The position numbers and the translations under genes were made by a program. From Rhodospirillaceae bacterium (lineage in GTDB: Bacteria; Pseudomonadota; Alphaproteobacteria; Bin65), in contig VXNK01000005.1 in assembly GCA_009840595.1 (NCBI GenBank), positions 18,467-82,466 of the forward strand: a stretch of 64,000 nucleotides of DNA, read 5' to 3'. The notes under the pieces were generated by a model. It ran no database searches, was not told where the DNA came from, and was given only the letters and a program-made list of their open reading frames with translations. Position 1 is the stretch's first letter. Each line of letters starts with the position of its first letter. Of the stretch, positions 5,970 to 47,032 are shown piece after piece.

Positions 5970-7070
5970 TCACGGCGAAAATCCGGGCAGGGGGCCGCAG
6001 GACGGCGCGGCGACCGCCATCGCCTTGAAAGCCGTTCCCATCCCCGCCGGATCGAGCAGCCTGTCGATAGCGGCGTCGACCGCCGTTGCGTCTTCCGGCG
6101 CCGCCGACGGCTTGAGCGCCGCCCGGCGCGCTTCGACCCCCAGCGATCGCAGAAAGCCGGCCTGTTCGACCGGCCCGAGCACCGTGGCGCCCGCCTGCTC
6201 GGCCGTCATGCGAAGCCGGCCGAAATCGACGTCCACGCTCAGGTCGGTCGCCCCGATGCCGTCCAGCGGATCGACGAGCCTGTGGCCCCTGATTCCGCGC
6301 AGCGTCGACCGGCCGGCGGGAAGGTTGCCGCCGTAATCGACCAGCAGAGCGGCGCCGCCGCGGCCGACGATCCGGCGCGCCGCCTCGCGGACGAAGGCAA
6401 GGGCGTCGGGCTGAACTTCACCGATCCCGCCCGTTTCGGCCGTCTCGGGCAGCGACAGGCCGGACGCCGCGACGGCAGCGGCCGGATCGCCCATCGAATC
6501 GGCCGCGGCGGCGAAGACCAGCCGGTCGTCCTCTCCGAGCGCAACCGTCCGTTCGCGCCAGCCGTCCGGCGTCATCGCGAACTGCCGGACCGGCAGGGCA
6601 TCGAGAAATTCGTTGGCGACCAGGAACAGCGGGCCGTCCGGCAGCCCGTCCAGGCCCTCGATCCAGACCGGCGCCGCCTCGGCCAGGATCTCCGCCTGAG
6701 CGGCGCGCAAGGTTTCGTTGCTCTCGATCAGGTGAAGGCGTGCGGCGGCGGCGAAATCGGGAACGACGCGCCGGACCGCCCGCAGGGCGTCGGCCATCAG
6801 CACGCCGCGGCCGGGGCCGGCCTCGCACAGGATGCAGGGATCGGGCCGTCCGGCCCGGTCCCACGCTTCGGCCAGCCACAGGCCGACCAGTTCCCCGAAA
6901 ACCTGGCTGATTTCCGGCGCGGTAATGAAATCGCCGCTGCGCCCGATCGCCGCCGCGCTCCGGTAGTAGCCGTGCTCGGGATGCTGCAGGGCGAGCGCCA
7001 TGAACCGGGAGACCGGCATGGGCCCGGTCTGCGCGATCATGCGCCGGACCGTCCGGTCGAGCGGCGTCAC
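5970..7070 (-). CDS. NDUFAF7/MidA family SAM-dependent methyltransferase
   Basis: GYY...GDFITAPEISQVFGEL, EAGPGRG, ANEFLDALP; GTG 7070 overlaps lgt stop (GTGA). Confidence 0.9.
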   Translation of the reverse strand: MTPLDRTVRRMIAQTGPMPVSRFMALALQHPEHGYYRSAAAIGRSGDFITAPEISQVFGELVGLWLAEAWDRAGRPDPCILCEAGPGRGVLMADALRAVRRVVPDFAAAARLHLIESNETLRAAQAEILAEAAPVWIEGLDGLPDGPLFLVANEFLDALPVRQFAMTPDGWRERTVALGEDDRLVFAAAADSMGDPAAAVAASGLSLPETAETGGIGEVQPDALAFVREAARRIVGRGGAALLVDYGGNLPAGRSTLRGIRGHRLVDPLDGIGATDLSVDVDFGRLRMTAEQAGATVLGPVEQAGFLRSLGVEARRAALKPSAAPEDATAVDAAIDRLLDPAGMGTAFKAMAVAAPSCGPLPGFSP

Positions 7071-7945
7071 CCGTCGTCCGCCGCCGGGTTGACGGCGGCT
7101 GCCGCTCTGTTCCGTGCGCGCAGGATCAGCCAGATGCCGAGGGCGACCAGCGGCAGGGAGAGCAACTGCCCCATGGTGACGAAGCCGAACAGGAAGCCGC
7201 TGTCGGGCAGGAAGGCATCGGGCTGGCGGAAGAATTCCACGACGAAGCGCGCAAGCCCGTAGCCGGCGCAGAACAGGCCGGCCAGTTCGCCGGGCCGGTC
7301 GAGGGCGCCCGCCCGCCGGCGCCACAGGTTGATGACGACGAGCAGCAGCAGCCCTTCGAGAAAGGCTTCGTAGAGCTGCGACGGGTGGCGCGGCAGCGGC
7401 CCGCCGCCCGGGAAAACCATCGCCCACGGCACGTCGCTGACGCGGCCCCAGAGCTCGCCGTTGACGAAGTTGGCCAGCCGCCCGAGCAGCAGCCCCAGCG
7501 GCGCGGCGCAGGCCGCCAGATCGCCGGCGGAGAACATGTCGATGCGCCGCTTGCGGCAGAACAGGACGATGGCGAGCGCCACGCCGATCAGCCCGCCGTG
7601 AAACGCCATGCCGCCCTGCCACAGGGCGAAAATCCGCTCCGGGTTCGCCAGGTAGAAACCCGGCTTGTAGAACAGCACATAGCCGAGCCGGCCGCCGACG
7701 ATCACGCCCAGCGCCGCCCAGAACATCAGGTCGTCGACCGCCCGGTCGTCCAGGGTCCGCGATCCGGCCCGCGATCCGGCCCGCGATCCGGCCCGCTGGG
7801 TGCCGGCCAGGCGGCGCATGAACCACCAGGCGAAGGCCAGCCCGCCGACATAGGCCAGCGCATACCACCGGATTTCGACCGGCCCGAGCCGGACCAGCAC
7901 CGGATCGATCGACGGATAGGGAAGCGCGAGGAGGATCGGATCCAT
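7067..7945 (-). CDS. lgt: Prolipoprotein diacylglyceryl transferase
   Basis: IRWYALAY, GGRLGYVL, GGMAFHGG, GRLANFVNGELWGR, RHPSQLYE, RFVVEFFRQPD. Confidence 0.97.
   Translation of the reverse strand: MDPILLALPYPSIDPVLVRLGPVEIRWYALAYVGGLAFAWWFMRRLAGTQRAGSRAGSRAGSRTLDDRAVDDLMFWAALGVIVGGRLGYVLFYKPGFYLANPERIFALWQGGMAFHGGLIGVALAIVLFCRKRRIDMFSAGDLAACAAPLGLLLGRLANFVNGELWGRVSDVPWAMVFPGGGPLPRHPSQLYEAFLEGLLLLVVINLWRRRAGALDRPGELAGLFCAGYGLARFVVEFFRQPDAFLPDSGFLFGFVTMGQLLSLPLVALGIWLILRARNRAAAAVNPAADDG
7757..7796. repeat. Perfect 12-bp tandem repeat (CCGCGATCCGGC)x3.3 inside lgt, encoding (RAGS)n
   Basis: Directly visible; in frame. Confidence 0.95.
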
Positions 7946-8188
7946 CGGCGGTCAGCTACAGGGCAGCAACAGGAATCGCCGGCCGGCGCCTTGCGCGATG
8001 CATCGGCCCGCACACCGCCGTCGGGACGTTGGCCGGACAACCGGACCCGGCGGCCGGAACTACGGACGCCTTATACGTTTGAGGCCGAACGGCGGCAATG
8101 TCCGGCAGTGTCCCGGTCCGGCTTGCAGCGCCGGCGGGAAGGGGCCCGGGCGGATTCAAGAAATTTCACCTATTTTTTGCTTTTTTCC

Positions 8189-8217
8189 TTGACATTCCGA
8201 CATCTGTCTCCTATATC
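8189..8217 (+). promoter_or_regulatory. Sigma70-like promoter at left end of non-coding island A
   Basis: TTGACA-17bp-TATATC preceded by an AT-rich UP-like tract (8159-8188). Confidence 0.6.
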
Positions 8218-8321
8218 GGTTCCTGCCAACGCCCGAACTGCGCCCGAAGCCCCCCGCGGGCGTCTTTCCCGTCCGTTCCGCCCGGCAAAGCAAGGCATCC
8301 CCTTTGGGTCGGAGGATGCGG

Positions 8322-8338
8322 CATGACATTTCATGACA
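8322..8338. repeat. CATGACA x2 at 10-bp period
   Basis: CATGACATTTCATGACA; same motif is arrayed at 45639-45862. Confidence 0.85.
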
Positions 8339-8364
8339 CATCCCGGGACCGTCATCCCGACTGG

Positions 8365-8447
8365 CCGTCCCCCTCATCGCCCTCCCGACCGACCATCCCC
8401 TCATCGTCATCCCGACCGACCGTCCCCCTCTTCGTCATCCCGACCGA
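8365..8447. repeat. Three 27-28-bp tandem copies of the REP left end
   Basis: CCGTCCCCCTCATCGTCATCCCGACCGA-like units at 8365, 8393, 8420; no spacers. Confidence 0.9.
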
Positions 8448-8557
8448 AGCGAAGCGAGCGGAGGGATCTCGGCTCGATCGCGGCAATGCAACACCCCGAG
8501 TCCAGCGACGAGATTCCTCCACTTCGCGGACTGGCGTCCGCTCCGGTCGGAATGACG
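8433..8557. repeat. CGTC-type REP/MITE-like palindromic element, copy 1
   Basis: TIR CGTCATCCCGACCG...CGGTCGGAATGACG, internal stem GGAGGGATCTC/GAGATTCCTCC; right end duplicated at 8575. Confidence 0.9.
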
Positions 8558-8878
8558 GGGAGAGCACGCGGAAGAATGACGGGGAGAGAGAGCGGGGCCC
8601 GGCCCGACGTGCCGCAGCCGGGCGTTGCGGGGAGAGCGGTGCCGGGTGGTTCCGGGGAATTTTCTGCACAACGGCGCGCGCGCCGTCCGGGGCCGATTCG
8701 GAGCAGGAAAGCCGGCCAACCCTTTGTTTTCCCGGCCTGTTCGCCGAAACGGATGACGGGCGGCCGCGCAGGAGTGATGAGGACTATTATCCTTCCATGC
8801 CGTCTTTTGTGCAACACCGGATGGCATTTTTCAGCGATTACAAGGGGTTGGAGCCGAGCGGCGCAAAAAAAGGCATAA

Positions 8879-8894
8879 GAAAGACCGGTCTGTC
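8879..8894. promoter_or_regulatory. Near-perfect 16-bp palindrome (TetR-operator-like), copy A
   Basis: GAAAGACCGGTCTGTC; homolog at 45890-45905. Confidence 0.5.
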
Positions 8895-9031
8895 CAGGTC
8901 AGGAAAACGGGTCAACCTGCTGTTTTTCCAGCCCAATCTCCGGAATCTAATATTGAACAATCGCTCAAATATAAAGGGAAATAGTCCTGTTTTCCGGTTT
9001 GACGCGCGGTGCCGAACCGAACCCGCTCCTT

Positions 9032-9113
9032 CCCCGTCATTTCGACTGGAGCGCCGTCAGGCGCGTAGCAGCCTGCCCCGGACGGGTCCGGGCCTCCGGT
9101 CGAAATGACGGGG
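9032..9113. repeat. Shorter CGTC-type REP-like hairpin, copy 2
   Basis: TIR CCCCGTCATTTCGACTGGAG...CTCCGGTCGAAATGACGGGG. Confidence 0.85.
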
Positions 9114-9176
9114 TTGGAATGACGGATAAGGGATCGGCTTTGGCCGGCGCGAAAGGCCGAACCGGGACGCTGTTCC

Positions 9177-9212
9177 ATGTTCGGACCAATGTGCGAACCC
9201 ATGTTCGGGTTT
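9177..9212. repeat. Degenerate 12-bp triplication upstream of modA
   Basis: ATGTTCGGACCA/ATGTGCGAACCC/ATGTTCGGGTTT. Confidence 0.7.
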
Positions 9213-9246
9213 GGGCGTTTCGGCATTCCTGCGTATAGAAAGCGGC

Positions 9247-10032
9247 ATGAGACTCGCGACCGCCCTTGTTGCTGCCCTTCTTCTCCTTGCAACGCCGGCG
9301 CAGGCGAAGATCGGCGATAACGGCGTCATCTTCGCCGCCGCCAGTCTGAAGGCGCCGCTGGATCGCGCGGTCGCCCTGCTGGTGGCGCAGCGGCGCTGCA
9401 TCGCGCCGGGCGGCACGATCCGCGTCTCCTACGCGTCGAGCGGCATCCTCGCCCGCCAGATCCGGTTCGGGGCGCCGGCCGACCTGTTCATCAGCGCCGA
9501 TCCGCGCTGGCTCGACTATCTCGAACGCAGCGGCCGGATCGATCCGGCGGCGCGGCGCACGCTGTTCGGCAACCGGCTGGTCGCCATCGCCCACGGCGCA
9601 AAAGGACCTGCCGGGCGGCTCGAGCGCGGTTCGGCGACGGCGCGCCGCCTGGGGCGGGAGCGGCTGGCCATCGGCGATCCGGGCCATGTTCCGGCCGGGC
9701 GCTATGCCAGGGCGGCGCTTCGATCCCTCGGCCTGTGGCAGCGGGCGCGGCGCAATATCGTGCTGGCGGCGAACGTCCGCATCGTGTCGGCCTATGTCTC
9801 CCGCCGGGAAGCGGCGTTGGGCATCGTCTACGAGACCGACGCGATCGCCGAACCGCGCGTCCACATCGCCGCCCGCATCCCGGCAAGCGCCCATCCGCCG
9901 ATCCGTTACGAAGCGGCGATCGTCGAAGGCGGCGACGCGGACTGCGCCCGGAACTGGCTCGAGGCGCTGCACAGCCCGGCCTACCGCAGGATTTTCGCCG
10001 ATGCCGGCTACGGCATGCCGAAGAACCGCTAG
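9247..10032 (+). CDS. modA: Molybdate ABC substrate-binding protein
   Basis: Signal peptide, FAAASL, ASSGILARQI..GAPADLFISA, VPAGRYA, IVYETDA; start moved to ATG 9247. Confidence 0.92.
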   Translation: MRLATALVAALLLLATPAQAKIGDNGVIFAAASLKAPLDRAVALLVAQRRCIAPGGTIRVSYASSGILARQIRFGAPADLFISADPRWLDYLERSGRIDPAARRTLFGNRLVAIAHGAKGPAGRLERGSATARRLGRERLAIGDPGHVPAGRYARAALRSLGLWQRARRNIVLAANVRIVSAYVSRREAALGIVYETDAIAEPRVHIAARIPASAHPPIRYEAAIVEGGDADCARNWLEALHSPAYRRIFADAGYGMPKNR

Positions 10033-14406: not shown

Positions 14407-15864
14407 ATGACTGGAGACGCAGGCGCGTCCGGAGCCGCCGGACCCGGCCACAATGCGCCGGCGGTCACCGTCTCGGAACTGTCCGCCTCGCTCAAACGGG
14501 TGGTCGAGGGCGAATTCAGCCGGGTCCGGGTGCGGGGCGAGATTTCCGGCTTCAAGCGGGCCGGGTCCGGCCATCTCTACATGGCGCTCAAGGACGACAG
14601 CGCCGTGCTGGACGCCGTGTGCTGGCGCGGCACGGCCGGGCGCCTTGCCGTCGACCCCGAGGACGGGCTCGAGGTCATCGCGACCGGCAGGCTGACGACC
14701 TACGCCGGCCGCTCGAAATACCAGATCGTGATCGAGGCGCTGGAAGTCGCCGGCGAAGGCGCGTTGCTGAAGCTGCTCGAAGAACGCCGGCGCAAGTTGG
14801 CGGCCGAGGGGCTGTTCGAAGAAAGTCTGAAGAAGCCGCTTCCGTTCCTGCCGAACGTCATCGGCGTCGTCACCTCGCCGGCCGGCGCCGTGATCCGGGA
14901 CATCCTGCACCGCCTGGAGGACCGGTTCCCGCGCCATGTCCTGCTCTGGCCGGTGCGGGTGCAGGGCGATTCGGCGGCCGGGGAAGTTGCCGGCGCCATC
15001 GTGGGTTTCAATGCGATCCGCGGCGATTCCGGGATTCCGCGGCCCGATCTTCTGATCGTGGCGCGGGGCGGCGGATCGATCGAGGATCTGTGGCCGTTCA
15101 ACGAGGAGGAGGTCGTCAGGGCCGCCGCAGCTTCGGACATTCCGCTGATCAGCGCGGTCGGCCACGAAACCGATACGACGCTGATCGACCATGCCGCCGA
15201 CCGCCGCGCACCGACACCGACCGCCGCGGCGGAAATCGCCGTGCCGGTGCGCAGCGAACTGGTCGCCCAGATCCTCGACGACGGCCGGCGCCTGGTGTCG
15301 GCGATGGGCCGCCTGCGGGAGGAATACCGCCTGCGCCTGGAAGCCGCCGGCAGCGGTTTGCCCGACCCCCGGTCGCTCATCGGGATCAAGACCCAGCAAC
15401 TGGACGACCGGGCCGAGCGCCTCGACCTCGGCCTGCGCAGCCTGGTCCGGGAAAAACGGTCCGCCGCCGACCGGTGCGGCGCCGGAATCCGGCCGGCGGC
15501 CCTCGTCCAGCTTGTCAATCGCCGGCGCGACCGGGCGGCCGAACTCGGCGCGCGTCTCCAGCCGCAGATGGCCCGGCGCCTGGCCGAACTGGGCGAACGG
15601 CTGGAGCAGCGCGGGAAACTGCTGGAGTCCTTCTCCTATAACCGGGTGCTGGATCGCGGCTTTGCGCTCGTGCAGGACCGGCACGGACAACCGGTCACCG
15701 ATACGGCGCAGGCGACGGCGGCCGGCCGGGTGACGCTCCGCTTCAAGGACGGCAGCCTGCCGGCGAGGATCGAAGCCGGGGACGGCGGCGCGGCGGGCTA
15801 TGCGAAGAAGCCCCGGCCTCGTTCGAAGCCAACGCCGGACAAGGATCAGGGATCGCTGTTGTAG
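14407..15864 (+). CDS. xseA: Exodeoxyribonuclease VII large subunit
   Basis: VRVRGEISGF..SGHLY, GVVTSPAGAVIRD, ARGGGSIEDLW, SAVGHETD, TPTAAAE. Confidence 0.97.
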   Translation: MTGDAGASGAAGPGHNAPAVTVSELSASLKRVVEGEFSRVRVRGEISGFKRAGSGHLYMALKDDSAVLDAVCWRGTAGRLAVDPEDGLEVIATGRLTTYAGRSKYQIVIEALEVAGEGALLKLLEERRRKLAAEGLFEESLKKPLPFLPNVIGVVTSPAGAVIRDILHRLEDRFPRHVLLWPVRVQGDSAAGEVAGAIVGFNAIRGDSGIPRPDLLIVARGGGSIEDLWPFNEEEVVRAAAASDIPLISAVGHETDTTLIDHAADRRAPTPTAAAEIAVPVRSELVAQILDDGRRLVSAMGRLREEYRLRLEAAGSGLPDPRSLIGIKTQQLDDRAERLDLGLRSLVREKRSAADRCGAGIRPAALVQLVNRRRDRAAELGARLQPQMARRLAELGERLEQRGKLLESFSYNRVLDRGFALVQDRHGQPVTDTAQATAAGRVTLRFKDGSLPARIEAGDGGAAGYAKKPRPRSKPTPDKDQGSLL

Positions 15865-18420: not shown

Positions 18421-18557
18421 TTTGCGTCGACGCCGCGCTTCGGCCGACGCGGCGCGCCGCCGCCGGACAGAGCCTCCGGCCGTCCGGGCCTCTGCGGTCC
18501 GGACGGATGCAGCCGGGGCGGGCAAACGCGCGGTCGATAGCGGAGCGACAGGCGGCA

Positions 18558-43605: not shown

Positions 43606-44584
43606 CACGGGCATCGCGCCGGACCTGGACCGCACCGCGATTGCGGCCGCCGACGCGCGGCATTTTCTCGATCTCGACTTGGTCGGACAGGCCGACCTGC
43701 GCCGCATCGTCGAGGCCGGCAAGCGCCTGAAGGCGGCCCGGCAGGCCGGTGCCCCGCCGGCGCGCCCGCTGGCCGGCAAGACGCTCGCGATGATCTTCGA
43801 AAAGCCGTCAACGCGCACGCGGGTCTCGTTCGAGCAGGCCGTCAGGCAGCTCGGCGGCGACGCCATCGTGCTGGAGCGCGAGAGCAGCCAACTCGGCCGC
43901 GGCGAGACCGTGGCGGATACGGCGCGCGTGCTCTCGCGCTATGTCGACGCCATCATGCTGCGCTGCACGAAGGAGGAAAAGCTGCTGGAGTTGGCGGCCA
44001 ACGCCGCCGTGCCGGTCATCAACGGCCTGACCGACCGGACCCATCCCTGCCAACTCATGGCCGACGTGATGACCTTCGAGGAGCATCGCGGCCCGATCGA
44101 GGGCAAGGCGGTCGCCTGGAGCGGCGACGGCAACAATATGGCGACCTCCTGGATCCACGCCGCGATGCAGTTCGGGTTCGAATTGCGGCTGGCGGCGCCG
44201 ACGGCGCTGCCGCCACCGGCCGATGTCGTGGACCGGGCGCGGGCGCGCGGCGCGCGGGTCCATGTGACCGACGACCCGGTGGAAGCGATTTCCGGCGCGG
44301 ATTGCGTCGTCACCGACGTCTGGATCTCGATGGGGGATACCGGCGCCGCCGACCATCACAACCTGCTGGCGCCCTACCGCGTCGACAGCGCGCTGATGAG
44401 CCATGCCCGGGACGACGCGATCTTCATGCACTGCCTGCCGGCCCATCGCGGCGAGGAGGTCGCCGCCGACGTGATCGACGGGCCGCAATCCGTCGTGTGG
44501 GACGAGGCGGAAAACCGGCTGCACGCCCAGAAGGGCATCCTGCTCTGGGCGCTGGCGCCCGACCTGCTGGAACAGACGCCATGA
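43595..44584 (+). CDS. argF: Ornithine carbamoyltransferase
   Basis: [32 protein letters not shown]. Confidence 0.98.
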
Positions 44585-45594
44585 CGGAGGGCGGCCCGGC
44601 CGGGTCCGCCGGCCCGGGGCTGCAGGGGGAGCCGCAGACCGATATCCTGATCCCCTTCCGGCTGGAGCGGGCGAACCTGCGCGGCCGGGCGGTCCGGCTC
44701 GGCCCCGCGATCGACGCCATCCTGTCGCGCCACGACTATCCGCCGCCGGTCGCCGACCTGCTGGGCGAAGCGCTGGCGCTCGCCGCCGTGCTGGCCGGCA
44801 CGCTGAAATACGACGGCATCTTCACCCTGCAGGTCAAGGGAGACGGGCCGGTCGGCATGCTGGTGTGCGACGTCACGTCGGACGGCGATCTGCGCGGCTA
44901 TGCCGAGGTCGACGAGGCGGCCTACGCCGCGCTCGGCACGGCGGCGCCCGACGGCCCGGTGCCGCGCCATCTGGGCGCCGGCCATCTCGCCTTCACGGTC
45001 GACCAGGGCCCGGACATGGAGCGCTACCAGGGGATCGTGGACCTGGCCGGCGCGACGCTGACCGAGTGCGCCCAGCATTATTTCCGGCAGTCCGAGCAGG
45101 TCGAGACCCTGCTTCGGCTCGGCGTCGGCCGCCCGGACGGCAGGCGCTGGCAGGCCTCCGCCCTGATGATCCAGCGCGTGCCGATGACCGGCGGGGTCGG
45201 CGGCGGGGCCCTTGGCGGGAGCGGCGCGCCGGCGGCGGACGACAGCGGCCACGCGGACGAGGACCGGCGCGAGGACGACTGGCGGCGCCTCGCCATGCTG
45301 CTCGGCACAGTGCGCAACGCCGAGGTGCTGGCCCCGGATGTCGATCCGCTGCGCCTGCTGCACCGCCTGTTCCACGCGGACGGCGTCCGGGTCTTCGAGC
45401 CGCAGGCGCTGCGCGACCGCTGCCGCTGCTCCGACGACCGGGCGGAGAATGCGTTGCGCATGCTGGACGCGGACGAACTGGCGGACATGACAATCGACGG
45501 CGCCGTGACTGTCGCCTGCCAGTTCTGCAGCCGGGTCCGGCGCTACGACGAGGCGGCGCTGGCCGCGCTGCGGGCCGGCCGGGCGGCGGCCTGA
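44581..45594 (+). CDS. hslO: Hsp33 redox-regulated chaperone
   Basis: [28 protein letters not shown] zinc motif. Confidence 0.95.
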
Positions 45595-45638
45595 TGCGGG
45601 GCCGGACAACGGGCCGGGAGTCCGCAGATACCCGGATA

Positions 45639-45671
45639 TGTCATGCCCCCGATATGTCATGAAATGTCATG
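45639..45671. repeat. TGTCATG x3 (16- and 10-bp spacing) on left flank of REP copy 3
   Basis: Copies at 45639, 45655, 45665. Confidence 0.85.
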
Positions 45672-45701
45672 ATTCGTTATGGCGCGCTCCTCCGCCCCAA
45701 C

Positions 45702-45825
45702 CGTCATTCCGACCGGAGCAGACGCCAGTCCGCGGAGTGGAGGAATCCCGTCGCCGGCTCCCGGGATTTGCAAATCCGTGATCGAGCCGAGATCCCTCCA
45801 CTCGCTCCGCTCGGTCGGGATGACG
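45702..45825. repeat. CGTC-type REP/MITE-like element, copy 3 (inverted relative to copy 1)
   Basis: Reverse complement aligns with 8433-8557 with ~17 differences by hand count, 11 of them in the central loop. Confidence 0.92.
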
Positions 45826-45835
45826 GTTTGGCTCG

Positions 45836-45862
45836 TGTCATGAAATGTCATGATTTGTCATG
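45836..45862. repeat. TGTCATG x3 at 10-bp period on right flank of REP copy 3
   Basis: TGTCATGAAATGTCATGATTTGTCATG. Confidence 0.9.
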
Positions 45863-45889
45863 TTCCGCCGCGCCCTGTCCGCTTGAATA

Positions 45890-45905
45890 GACAGACCGTT
45901 CTATC
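45890..45905. promoter_or_regulatory. 16-bp imperfect palindrome (TetR-operator-like), copy B
   Basis: GACAGACCGTTCTATC followed by 7 nt and T7-GC, the same layout as 8879-8894 on the minus strand. Confidence 0.5.
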
Positions 45906-46208
45906 CATCGTGTTTTTTTGCATTCCGGCCCCACCGTCCGAAACGCCCCGCCGGCCCGAAGTGGCGGAAAACCGCCGAAAACCGCCAGCCGGACGCCTGC
46001 CCGGTTCCGGCTCTTTGAAGGAAAAAATGGAAATAAGGAATACATTCTTTATTCTGTTCATGCTGCGTGGGATTTTTTCCTGCGTCGGGCGGGAGCCGGC
46101 GGGAACCGCAAACGCCGCCCGTTCGTCCGCAAAACCGGACAATGCCGCCCGGACGCCGATCCCGGCCTGACCCGAAACCCTCATTGGACCCCGGACGGAA
46201 CGCGGAAT

Positions 46209-46239
46209 GTTCATATAATGTTCGATTCACAGATGTCAA
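46209..46239 (-). promoter_or_regulatory. Alphaproteobacterial LexA (SOS) box overlapping a leftward sigma70-like promoter
   Basis: GTTC-ATATAAT-GTTC at 46209-46223; TTGACA on minus strand at 46239-46234, -10-like TATATG at 16-bp spacing. Confidence 0.7.
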
Positions 46240-46345
46240 GCCCTGTTGCGCCCATCGCCGGCGGCTTGCGGGACGCCGCGCTTCCCTCACGCGCCGGCCT
46301 TGCACCGAGCCCGGAGTTACACAGGCGGGATACGGCGAACGCCGG

Positions 46346-47032
46346 CTAGCGGTCCCGCGCTTCGCAGTGCTCCCGCTCCATGAAGGCGCGCAATCCCGTT
46401 GCCTCATCCTCAACGAACCGCTCGCCGGTTACGGCGAGGTTCGCCGTGCGGTCGAACCGGAAGGTGCGGAAGTCCTGCCGGAGTTCGCACCAGCCGGAAA
46501 ACATCCAGCCATCGGTCAGGTTCCAGATCGCGAGAGGGCGCACGCGGCGTCCGGTCCGGTTCCCGTCGCCGTCCCGGTAGTCGAACCGCGCGATCTGCCG
46601 CTCGCGGATCGCCCGGCGGAGCAGGGCCACATCCGGCGTTGCGCGGTTTCTGCCCTGAAGATTGAAATAGGGCGCATCGGCGAGCCGGCGCTCCTCCGGC
46701 CGGGGCATGCCGGCCTGGAGTTTCGCGCGCGCCTCGCGGGCCGCCGCCGCCAGCACCGGATCGCCGGCGCTTTCCACGAAGGAAAGGCCCACGGCAAGCG
46801 CATCGACCTGGTCGTGGGTAAACGTCACGTTGGGCAGGTCGAAACCCGGCCGCAGCAGGTAGCCGACGCCGGCCTCGCCTTCGATCGGCAGGCCGGACGC
46901 CTGGAGATGGGCGATGTCGCGATAGATCGTGCTGACGCTGACTTCGAAATGTTCGGCAAGGTCGCCGGCCCGGCTGACGCCGCGGGTCCGCATCTCGTTG
47001 ACCAGCCTGAACAGCCTTTCCGCACGTCTCAT
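46346..47032 (-). CDS. YafY-family HTH-WYL transcriptional regulator
   Basis: MRRAERLF, VSVSTIYRDIAHL, EGEAGVGY, RRVRPL..W....WCELRQDFRTFRFDR. Confidence 0.95.
   Translation of the reverse strand: MRRAERLFRLVNEMRTRGVSRAGDLAEHFEVSVSTIYRDIAHLQASGLPIEGEAGVGYLLRPGFDLPNVTFTHDQVDALAVGLSFVESAGDPVLAAAAREARAKLQAGMPRPEERRLADAPYFNLQGRNRATPDVALLRRAIRERQIARFDYRDGDGNRTGRRVRPLAIWNLTDGWMFSGWCELRQDFRTFRFDRTANLAVTGERFVEDEATGLRAFMEREHCEARDR

Follow-up and report, generated by a model that had tools for sequence, protein, structure and literature searches.

Genus-specific non-coding repeat modules with built-in promoters probably account for two gene-free islands in a Rhodospirillaceae genome

The stretch of DNA analyzed here (the window) covers 64,000 nucleotides of the Rhodospirillaceae bacterium assembly GCA_009840595.1, namely positions 18,467 to 82,466 of contig VXNK01000005.1 (C85:18467-82466 of genome G000 in the index used below, where C numbers are contigs and G numbers genomes). 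The genome amounts to 4.1 Mb in 168 contigs, with 68% G+C, 98% completeness, and, by our own codon-usage gene calls, 85% of the sequence coding. Two intergenic regions of the window hold gene-free islands. Island A lies between the divergent genes lgt and modA, and island B lies between the convergent genes for Hsp33 and a WYL/helix-turn-helix (HTH) regulator. At least five repeat families make up the mosaic of each island, among them a promoter cassette, an AT-rich core module, arrays of the heptamer CATGACA, and a hairpin of ~125 nt that resembles repetitive extragenic palindromes (REPs). Thirteen genomes of the genus were compared with 18 genomes from other genera; the relatives are uncultured "Rhodospirillaceae/Alphaproteobacteria bacterium" metagenome-assembled genomes (MAGs), one of them from the sponge Spongia. 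The islands are probably insertion-derived stacks of genus-specific non-coding repeat modules that follow a preferred order and orientation.

The core module family was collected with an iterated nhmmer profile seeded by positions 8760-8940. A core consists of an AT-rich stretch, an A-run, and then a 16-20-bp palindrome (GACCGGTCTGTC), and the genome holds 42 copies, including the one on the minus strand at 46045-45886. Long copies (n = 27) have a 121-nt unit followed by a conserved AT-rich tail of ~60-110 nt, and short copies (n = 15) consist of the 3' 45 nt only, that is, GCAAAAAAA, 7-8 nt, and TAGAcAGACCGGTCTGTCTA. The pattern of an A-run, 8-13 nt, and GAMCGGTCTGTC occurs 6-28 times in 9 of the 13 genus genomes and not once in the 18 genomes of other genera; a reversed control pattern was never found. 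Across nine species the palindrome has a nearly invariant right half and a fixed distance from the A-run. The youngest composites of G004, which are 92-97% identical to one another, have a duplicated A-run (GCAAAAAAATGCAAAAAAACAC) ahead of the palindrome. Three readings as known regulatory sites were rejected: a sigma-54 promoter (TGGC-N7-GC, in the 23-nt block at 8817-8839) is not kept in the family alignment, an EcfG-type GGAAC-N16-CGTT at the 5' end of the core has the wrong spacing and a CGTT that is not conserved, and an FNR/FixK site at TTGAACGATCGCTCAA has a spacing of N8 rather than N6.

Two different promoter cassettes stand at the head of these composites. The P5 cassette of island A (CTTGAC-N17-CTATAT) has 23 copies in G000, 19 of which have a core on the same strand 235-734 nt downstream, and seven other species show the same order in 43 of the 48 copies retrieved from them. 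CTTGAC-N17-CTATAT is the sigma-70 consensus of S. meliloti (PMC2873474). The SOS cassette of island B (CTTGAC, ~10 nt, GAACATTATATGAAC) has 30 copies, all of them intergenic. Its exact 15-mer is present 12-21 times in 10 of the 13 genus genomes and 0-1 times elsewhere, and the reversed control never occurs. The GAAC-N7-GAAC direct repeat is the alphaproteobacterial LexA site (PMC3323433), and in island B the repeat at 46209-46223 lies within a CTTGAC ... TATATG promoter, in agreement with the alphaproteobacterial form. The genome's own lexA gene (C130:88-804) has the promoter CTTGAC-N9-GAACCAAAGTAGAAC, a layout identical to that of the 30-copy cassette, and the region upstream of its recA gene (C15:20513-21556) carries GAACACTTGCGGAAC and further GAAC repeats. 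A literature search for intergenic repeats or miniature inverted-repeat transposable elements (MITEs) that bear LexA boxes returned nothing relevant.

A few cassettes stand upstream of genes. One P5 copy that lacks a core (C55:17065, at 266-360 of C55:16800-19400) lies ~150 nt upstream of a 79-aa open reading frame (ORF; phrog_831) and a T7-like portal gene (PF12236, E = 1e-99; phrog_332). From this position, the cassette may have its origin in a phage-like structural operon or be regulated together with one. At C101:3000-5100, an SOS cassette with a short core and a CATGACA array immediately precedes a tyrosine integrase gene (PF00589, with an Arm DNA-binding domain) and points in the same direction as that gene. 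At C74:400-1400, an SOS cassette with a CATGACA array lies 276 nt upstream of a 119-aa HigA-like antidote ORF, whose N terminus looks like the remnant of a toxin gene.

The remaining modules are equally dispersed, and they are joined in a recurrent way. The long hairpin accounts for 83 merged loci in G000. Of 57 CATGACA arrays, 53 are intergenic; the arrays are phased with a 10-nt period, and all those downstream of a promoter cassette share the orientation of the promoter. Downstream of the 30 SOS cassettes, and always oriented like the promoter, there are 17 cores, 19 CATGACA arrays, and 11 long hairpins. A typical series runs from promoter to core, CATGACA, hairpin, and again CATGACA. Island B conforms to it, and in island A and its paralog a CATGACA array and hairpin precede the core. 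The basic composite unit of ~590-650 nt is well conserved from end to end, with long hairpins often nested in its GC-rich spacer. The long composite was found in 8 of the 13 genus genomes and in none of the 18 outside the genus. By class of intergenic region, modules occupy 32 of 366 convergent (8.7%), 15 of 498 divergent (3.0%), and 58 of 1563 tandem regions (3.7%). Two further profiles, fam6 and fam8, each match twice within island A, as expected from the degenerate tandem copy at 8593-8793, and their other copies are found only on C100 and C77.

Comparison of orthologous sites shows both islands to be insertions. The site of island A is empty in G005, G012, G007, and G011, whose lgt-modA spacers contain ...GGCGGCAATGTTCGGGTTTGGGCG... 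unbroken, and it holds a rearranged island in G004, G003, G010, G002, and G006. Island B is absent in G005, which has only ~50 nt between the Hsp33 and WYL genes. The reverse case also exists: G000 has empty sites where G003, G010, and G002 hold composites, the insert in G010 lying just after a terminator. One copy, on C138, occupies the same locus in five species. Identity to the nearest copy is 90-97% within a genome, whereas the best match in another genome reaches 81-89%, a sign of recent spread. An orthologous pair of copies is 85% identical, versus ~87% for the flanking DNA; taken with the within- and between-genome identities, this indicates that some copies are old and that others arose after the species split. 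The proposal of the sequence-only reading that a dispersed non-autonomous element is present is supported: no part of either island falls outside the multi-copy, gene-free families restricted to the genus, there are many further genomic copies, sites are empty in relatives, and the composite recurs in an ordered form.

The edges of island A may retain signs of its insertion. Its flanks are copies of AATGTYCGG, with a triple 12-nt repeat on the right side, and a similar 12-nt triplet is found in G004 at the same island edge. The triplet at 9177-9212 looks like a reiterated target duplication or footprint. The flanks of island B show a loose mutual resemblance, and no terminal inverted repeats were found for that island.

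Part of the system can be tied to a transposon. The 19-nt motif CCCTTTCGCAGAGGAATCC has ~41-55 intergenic occurrences, and inverted pairs (GGATTCCTCTGCGAAAGGG / CCCTTTCGCAGAGGAATCC) surround hairpin-only units as well as whole composites; composites bracketed in this way are found on C154, C15, and C90 and also in G003 and G010. G012 contains eight identical 1.2-kb elements, related to the insertion sequence (IS) IS5, that encode a 318-aa DDE_Tnp_1 transposase and have the ends GGATTTCTCTGCRAAAG, which is the bracketing motif. These IS5-like elements sit inside CCCCCTCT-N4-AGAGGGGG hairpins, and the 8-nt hairpin loop is duplicated in two of the three copies read. There is one intact copy in G007 and a decayed copy in G003, and units bounded by GGATTYCTCTGCRAAAG have an autonomous relative with the same ends in G012 (eight copies) and in G007 (one). 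Because composites are bracketed by the ends of an intact IS5-like transposon, part of the system appears to be an IS5-like MITE family. Both of the G012 IS5-like copies read adjoin a core and a P5 cassette. IS110-family transposases exist in G000, G010, and G012, and no link was drawn between them and the modules. The sequence-only reading had also considered a REP-associated tyrosine transposase (RAYT) flanked by the same repeats. No such Y1 transposase was found: PF01797 is unmatched in the 98%-complete G000, and the same search gave matches in six control genomes. Deposited phages and plasmids show no similarity to the short or the long consensus.

Table 1. Islands A and B in the window, their parts, and the genes beside them
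Feature	Positions	Strand	Remarks
lgt	7067-7945	-	PF01790; neighbor of island A, divergent from modA
Left copy of duplicated target (AATGTCCGG)	8097-8105		GGCGGCAATGTTCGGGTTTGGGCG is continuous in empty-site relatives and split here in G000
Island A, whole	~8106-9172		~1.07 kb inside the lgt-modA spacer
Left terminal inverted match (CAGTGTCCCGGTCCGGC)	8106-8122	+	15/17 against the reverse complement of 9156-9172
Promoter cassette P5	8169-8262	+	AT-rich 5' part, CTTGAC 8188-8193, 17 nt, CTATAT 8211-8216, ~40 conserved nt that would be transcribed
CATGACA array, 2 units	8322-8338	+	10-nt period; read in the sequence
Partial left arms of the long hairpin	~8347-8364, ~8402-8419		
Long REP-like hairpin (CGTCATCCCGACC ... 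GGTCGGAATGACG)	8433-8558		86% identical to 45701-45825
Degenerate GC-rich tandem copy of the post-core tail	8593-8793	+	8690-8793 resembles 8887-8990, period ~197
Core module	8786-8900	+	AT-rich 5' part, A-run 8863-8871, palindrome GAAAGACCGGTCTGTC 8879-8894; nhmmer E = 1.3e-27
AT-rich core tail (..AAAACGG..TTGAACAATCGCTCAAATATAAAGGGAAATAGTCC)	8903-8989	+	Kept after the palindrome in long and short copies
Shorter REP-family hairpin (GTCATTTCGAC ... GTCGAAATGAC)	9028-9120		Inverted repeat I18; fam4 profile, overlapping the long-REP family
Right terminal inverted match	9156-9172	-	Pairs with 8106-8122
Three 12-nt tandem target repeats (CCATGTTCGGAC CAATGTGCGAAC CCATGTTCGGGT)	9177-9212		Conserved modA upstream sequence restarts here
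modA	9247-10032	+	Neighbor of island A
Hsp33 gene	44581-45594	+	PF01430; neighbor of island B, convergent with the WYL/HTH gene
Island B, whole	~45597-46325		Ends at ~45597
CATGACA array, 3 units	45640-45681	-	Oriented like the array at 45836-45872
Long REP-like hairpin	45701-45825		
CATGACA array, 3 units	45836-45872	-	
Core module	45886-46045	-	A-run 45921-45913, palindrome TAGAACGGTCTGTCTA ~45905-45890; nhmmer E = 3e-12 genome-wide, 4e-17 within the islands
Module f7, hairpin remnant and ..GGCGAACGAGCGGCGTTTGC..	46055-46177	-	29 copies in G000
Promoter cassette SOS	46209-46240	-	CTTGAC 46240-46235, then GAACATTATATGAAC 46223-46209, i.e., GAAC-N7-GAAC overlapping the -10 element
WYL/HTH regulator	46346-47032	-	Neighbor of island B

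Some observations on the surroundings can be added. The WYL/HTH regulator beside island B has an ortholog in just one other genome of the genus (G005). A tRNA-Gly(ccc) gene at 15570-15646 on the minus strand was called by ARAGORN and was not listed by the Rfam scan of the window at gathering score. Repeat modules lie within a few hundred bases of many contig ends in G000 (e.g., C8, C58, C92, C160, C17, C31, and C28), and this placement suggests that the repeats probably cause many of the assembly breaks.

Several points weigh against the reading as stacked, inserted modules with active promoters. For one, gene conversion (concerted evolution) could mimic recent spread. The IS5-like transposase is encoded nowhere in G000, and its end motif has no copy in the window and hence none in islands A and B. 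The edge sequence of island A occurs at background-level counts in all 13 genus genomes; it does not recur as a transposon end in any genome of the genus and is weak evidence for a true terminal inverted repeat. A simple promoter scan of the E. coli type flags neither cassette, as the -10 hexamers lack the final T under that reading. Lastly, GACCGGTCTGTC and the 15-nt LexA-box sequence hardly vary among many copies in nine or ten species, which looks like functional selection rather than neutral junk.

Two readings, both unlikely, give the composites a function of their own. In the first, the composites would be non-coding RNA (ncRNA) genes, some induced by LexA and DNA damage and some constitutive, and the core with its A-run, hairpin, and AT-rich tail would be a functional RNA kept by selection. 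The sequence-only reading had likewise offered a structured ncRNA family. Consensus promoters at the 5' end are always aimed into the core, the 590-nt consensus is very highly conserved, the LexA-box 15-mer is strictly kept across 10 species, and CTTGAC-N17-CTATAT precedes many real small RNAs (sRNAs) of S. meliloti (PMC2873474). However, neither strand shows conserved secondary structure or covariation. RNAalifold consensus energies are -2.9 and -0.1 kcal/mol for the two strands of the core, which means no conserved fold, and -15 and -20 kcal/mol with few scattered pairs for the 290-nt GC-rich spacer. Rfam gave no match at gathering score in the window, and even at E <= 1 neither the islands nor canonical copies had a meaningful hit; intrinsic terminators were not found either. 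Hairpin insertions of 130-400 nt can be nested in the spacer, species differ by gain and loss of loci, and the orthologous pair has diverged about as much as its flanks. Small proteins were rejected as the product as well: ORF start and length differ among copies, the length of the A-run varies, and neither the candidate micro-ORFs starting from (A/G)TGCAAAAAAA nor those in the tail are conserved.

The second reading of this kind centers on the SOS cassette, and we consider it about as improbable. The cassette and the core together would form a LexA-controlled set of ~20-30 gene-less transcription units per genome in about ten species of a largely sponge-associated lineage. The set could be a damage-induced ncRNA regulon or a non-autonomous mobile element whose mobilization or copy choice is switched by damage, and the palindrome with the A-run at a fixed distance would be a protein recognition site.

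The sequence-only reading had described islands A and B as two diverged copies of a single 300-1000-bp composite with a colinear series of shared blocks, and homology throughout the islands now appears very unlikely. Every motif that it listed is in place. The first block, CCGTCCGGGG, is present at 8683 and, reverse-complemented, at 46189-46198, and the second, CGGAYGA(A)CGGGCGGC, at 8750 and, again reverse-complemented, at 46113-46129. The third is the pair of 23-nt blocks at 8817-8839 and 45970-45992 (reverse complement), with five mismatches, and the fourth, GCAAAAAAA, occurs at 8863 and at 45913-45921 (reverse complement) with a palindrome after each. Long hairpins, CATGACA arrays, and TTGACA motifs are present in both islands. 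A chance test, in which local alignments of island regions were set against dinucleotide shuffles, separates these blocks. For the region of the first two (8560-8785 versus 46260-46044, reverse complement), the score of 13 compares with a shuffle mean of 13.6 +/- 2.5 and is reached by 194 of 300 shuffles; a 10-mer in common arises in 70 of 500 shuffles (14%), which is chance level. For the region of the last two (8785-8905 versus 46043-45880, reverse complement), the score is 17 versus 9.7 +/- 1.6, and none of 300 shuffles reaches it. The observation of colinear blocks was therefore half right: it stands for the last two (8817-8894 / 45992-45890) and fails for CCGTCCGGGG and CGGAYGA(A)CGGGCGGC. 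Both of these fall within the degenerate tandem copy at 8593-8793 in island A, and the second falls within module f7 in island B.

The promoter-like start, the core, the CATGACA arrays, and the REP-type hairpin in both islands speak for a single composite, as does a weak profile match between 8672-8705 and 46205-46166 (E = 0.0075 in a 2-kb search). However, similarity beyond the core, hairpin, and arrays is at chance, and in a direct alignment of A with the reverse complement of B, no parts but the long hairpin (126 nt, 86%) and the CATGACA arrays are significantly similar. The islands have three module types in common, but their promoter blocks come from different repeat families and the order of the modules is not the same, the CATGACA array and long hairpin standing before the core in A and after it in B. 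Moreover, each island has a far closer paralog elsewhere in G000, C100:8851-9796 for island A (83%) and C153:47928-48340 for island B (82%). Segmental duplication or a mixed-strain assembly as the source of the paralogs was rejected, as flanking genes are not duplicated and the families are also found in single-contig genomes. The shuffle test and the assignment of the parts to families largely refute the single-composite reading.

The least probable of the readings, also very unlikely, takes the modules as domesticated protein-binding platforms, with the palindrome as the operator of a dimeric regulator on an opposite-strand promoter (TTGAAT, 17-18 nt, TA..GT), CATGACA as sites for winged-helix response regulators, and the AT-rich parts bound by nucleoid proteins: TGTCATG, the reverse complement of CATGACA, resembles Pho-box half sites, the arrays are phased at 10 nt, the right half of the palindrome and its spacing from the A-run are kept in nine species, and on the opposite strand of long copies and of island B the palindrome lies between -35-like and -10-like hexamers, but no candidate regulator was identified, the sites are mostly at gene 3' ends rather than upstream, the -35-like hexamer is poor in short copies, and the array period differs from the 11 nt of Pho boxes.

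The reading as stacked repeat modules places the islands among familiar kinds of genomic repeats. Enterobacterial bacterial interspersed mosaic elements (BIMEs), including the RIP/RIB type that bears IHF sites, are non-coding, extragenic, multi-copy elements in which palindromic units and motifs are ordered, and they lie at gene 3' ends and in convergent regions. The modules share the extragenic multi-copy mosaic, the preferred order, the concentration at 3' ends and in convergent regions, and the lack of coding capacity; a recurrent order of extragenic palindromic units and motifs with a convergent or 3'-end preference is typical of a BIME-like element, and it is found here; binding of IHF, gyrase, or Pol I is a further mark of BIMEs. 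The modules are unrelated to BIMEs in sequence, their hairpin is ~125 nt long versus 35-40 nt, their cassettes are complete promoters, one of them with a LexA operator, and their AT-rich core measures 180 nt; G000 also lacks a RAYT. The REP and REPIN systems mobilized by RAYTs are alike in their dispersed extragenic hairpins with adjoining short-repeat arrays. In those systems, however, the genome carries a cognate Y1 (HUH) RAYT gene, usually flanked by the repeats, and the units are short, imperfect palindromes (~20-40 nt), often in inverted doublets, whereas the palindromes here are single and long (~125 nt at 8433-8558 and ~90 nt at 9028-9120). G000 has no Y1/RAYT gene, and no short REP with a conserved tetranucleotide head was identified in it.

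MITEs derived from IS elements are gene-free and a few hundred base pairs long and have terminal inverted repeats, target-site duplications of fixed length, and an autonomous relative with matching ends; promoter-bearing ones such as the Correia elements of Neisseria can bring promoters beside host genes. The modules resemble them in size, in being gene-free, and in presence/absence polymorphism, and some copies are bracketed by IS5-like ends. Unlike MITEs, which form a single unit between inverted repeats, the units here are nested and modular; the IS5-like inverted repeats are missing from islands A and B, the transposase is absent in G000, and the target duplication is not cleanly defined. 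The multi-copy families of trans-acting sRNAs in Alphaproteobacteria (alpha-r) are alike in being intergenic and in having promoters of the CTTGAC-N17-CTATAT type. These families reportedly have conserved structures and terminators and are in Rfam; the modules, in contrast, show no fold, terminator, or Rfam match. Finally, alphaproteobacterial LexA operators have the form GTTC-N7-GTTC / GAAC-N7-GAAC (PMC3323433), and island B has an exact GAAC-N7-GAAC over the -10 element, as does the genome's own lexA promoter. LexA operators are single-copy sites before a repair gene, whereas the SOS cassette is a 30-copy repeat that mostly does not precede a protein gene. The feature is therefore a BIME/MITE-like mosaic with built-in promoters, ordinary in kind and unusual in its complete cassettes, the 30-copy LexA-operated one included, and in an order that is conserved across the genus.

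A working model follows for the stacked modules. Composites would be laid out as a promoter cassette, an optional filler, an AT-rich core with its A-run and palindrome, a CATGACA array, a long hairpin, and a second CATGACA array. They would spread as DNA, either mobilized in trans or through recombination between repeats; they would not spread via RNA, because the repeated unit includes a promoter that would not itself be transcribed. The cassettes are probably active, and each island would then emit a non-coding transcript. That of island A would be constitutive and run towards modABC, and that of island B would be repressed by LexA and head, in antisense direction, for the 3' end of the Hsp33 gene. 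The strong conservation of the palindrome, the fixed A-run distance, and the phased CATGACA arrays suggest that proteins bind the modules. The lgt-modA spacer (8035-8105 and 9201-9246; ..CCTTATACGTTTGGGCCGGAACGGCGGCAATGTTCGGGTTTGGGCG..TTCCTGCGTATAGAAAGCGG-ATG) is kept in genomes whose ModA is only ~70% identical and, by that conservation, is probably the modA promoter or operator. As island A splits this upstream sequence, expression of modABC has probably been rewired. In our view, the elements are mostly selfish or neutral passengers that may have regulatory side effects locally.

The defined list of modules can be used to mask and annotate these MAGs and to explain many contig breaks. Should the cassettes fire, many non-coding transcripts would be part of the SOS response in this lineage, a situation for which the literature searched holds no description in Alphaproteobacteria. 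In the window, island A comes between modABC and the conserved sequence upstream of it, and the SOS promoter of island B points at the 3' end of the Hsp33 gene. By carrying complete promoters, one of them with an SOS operator, to dozens of sites in the genome, these repeats offer a ready source of regulatory rewiring.

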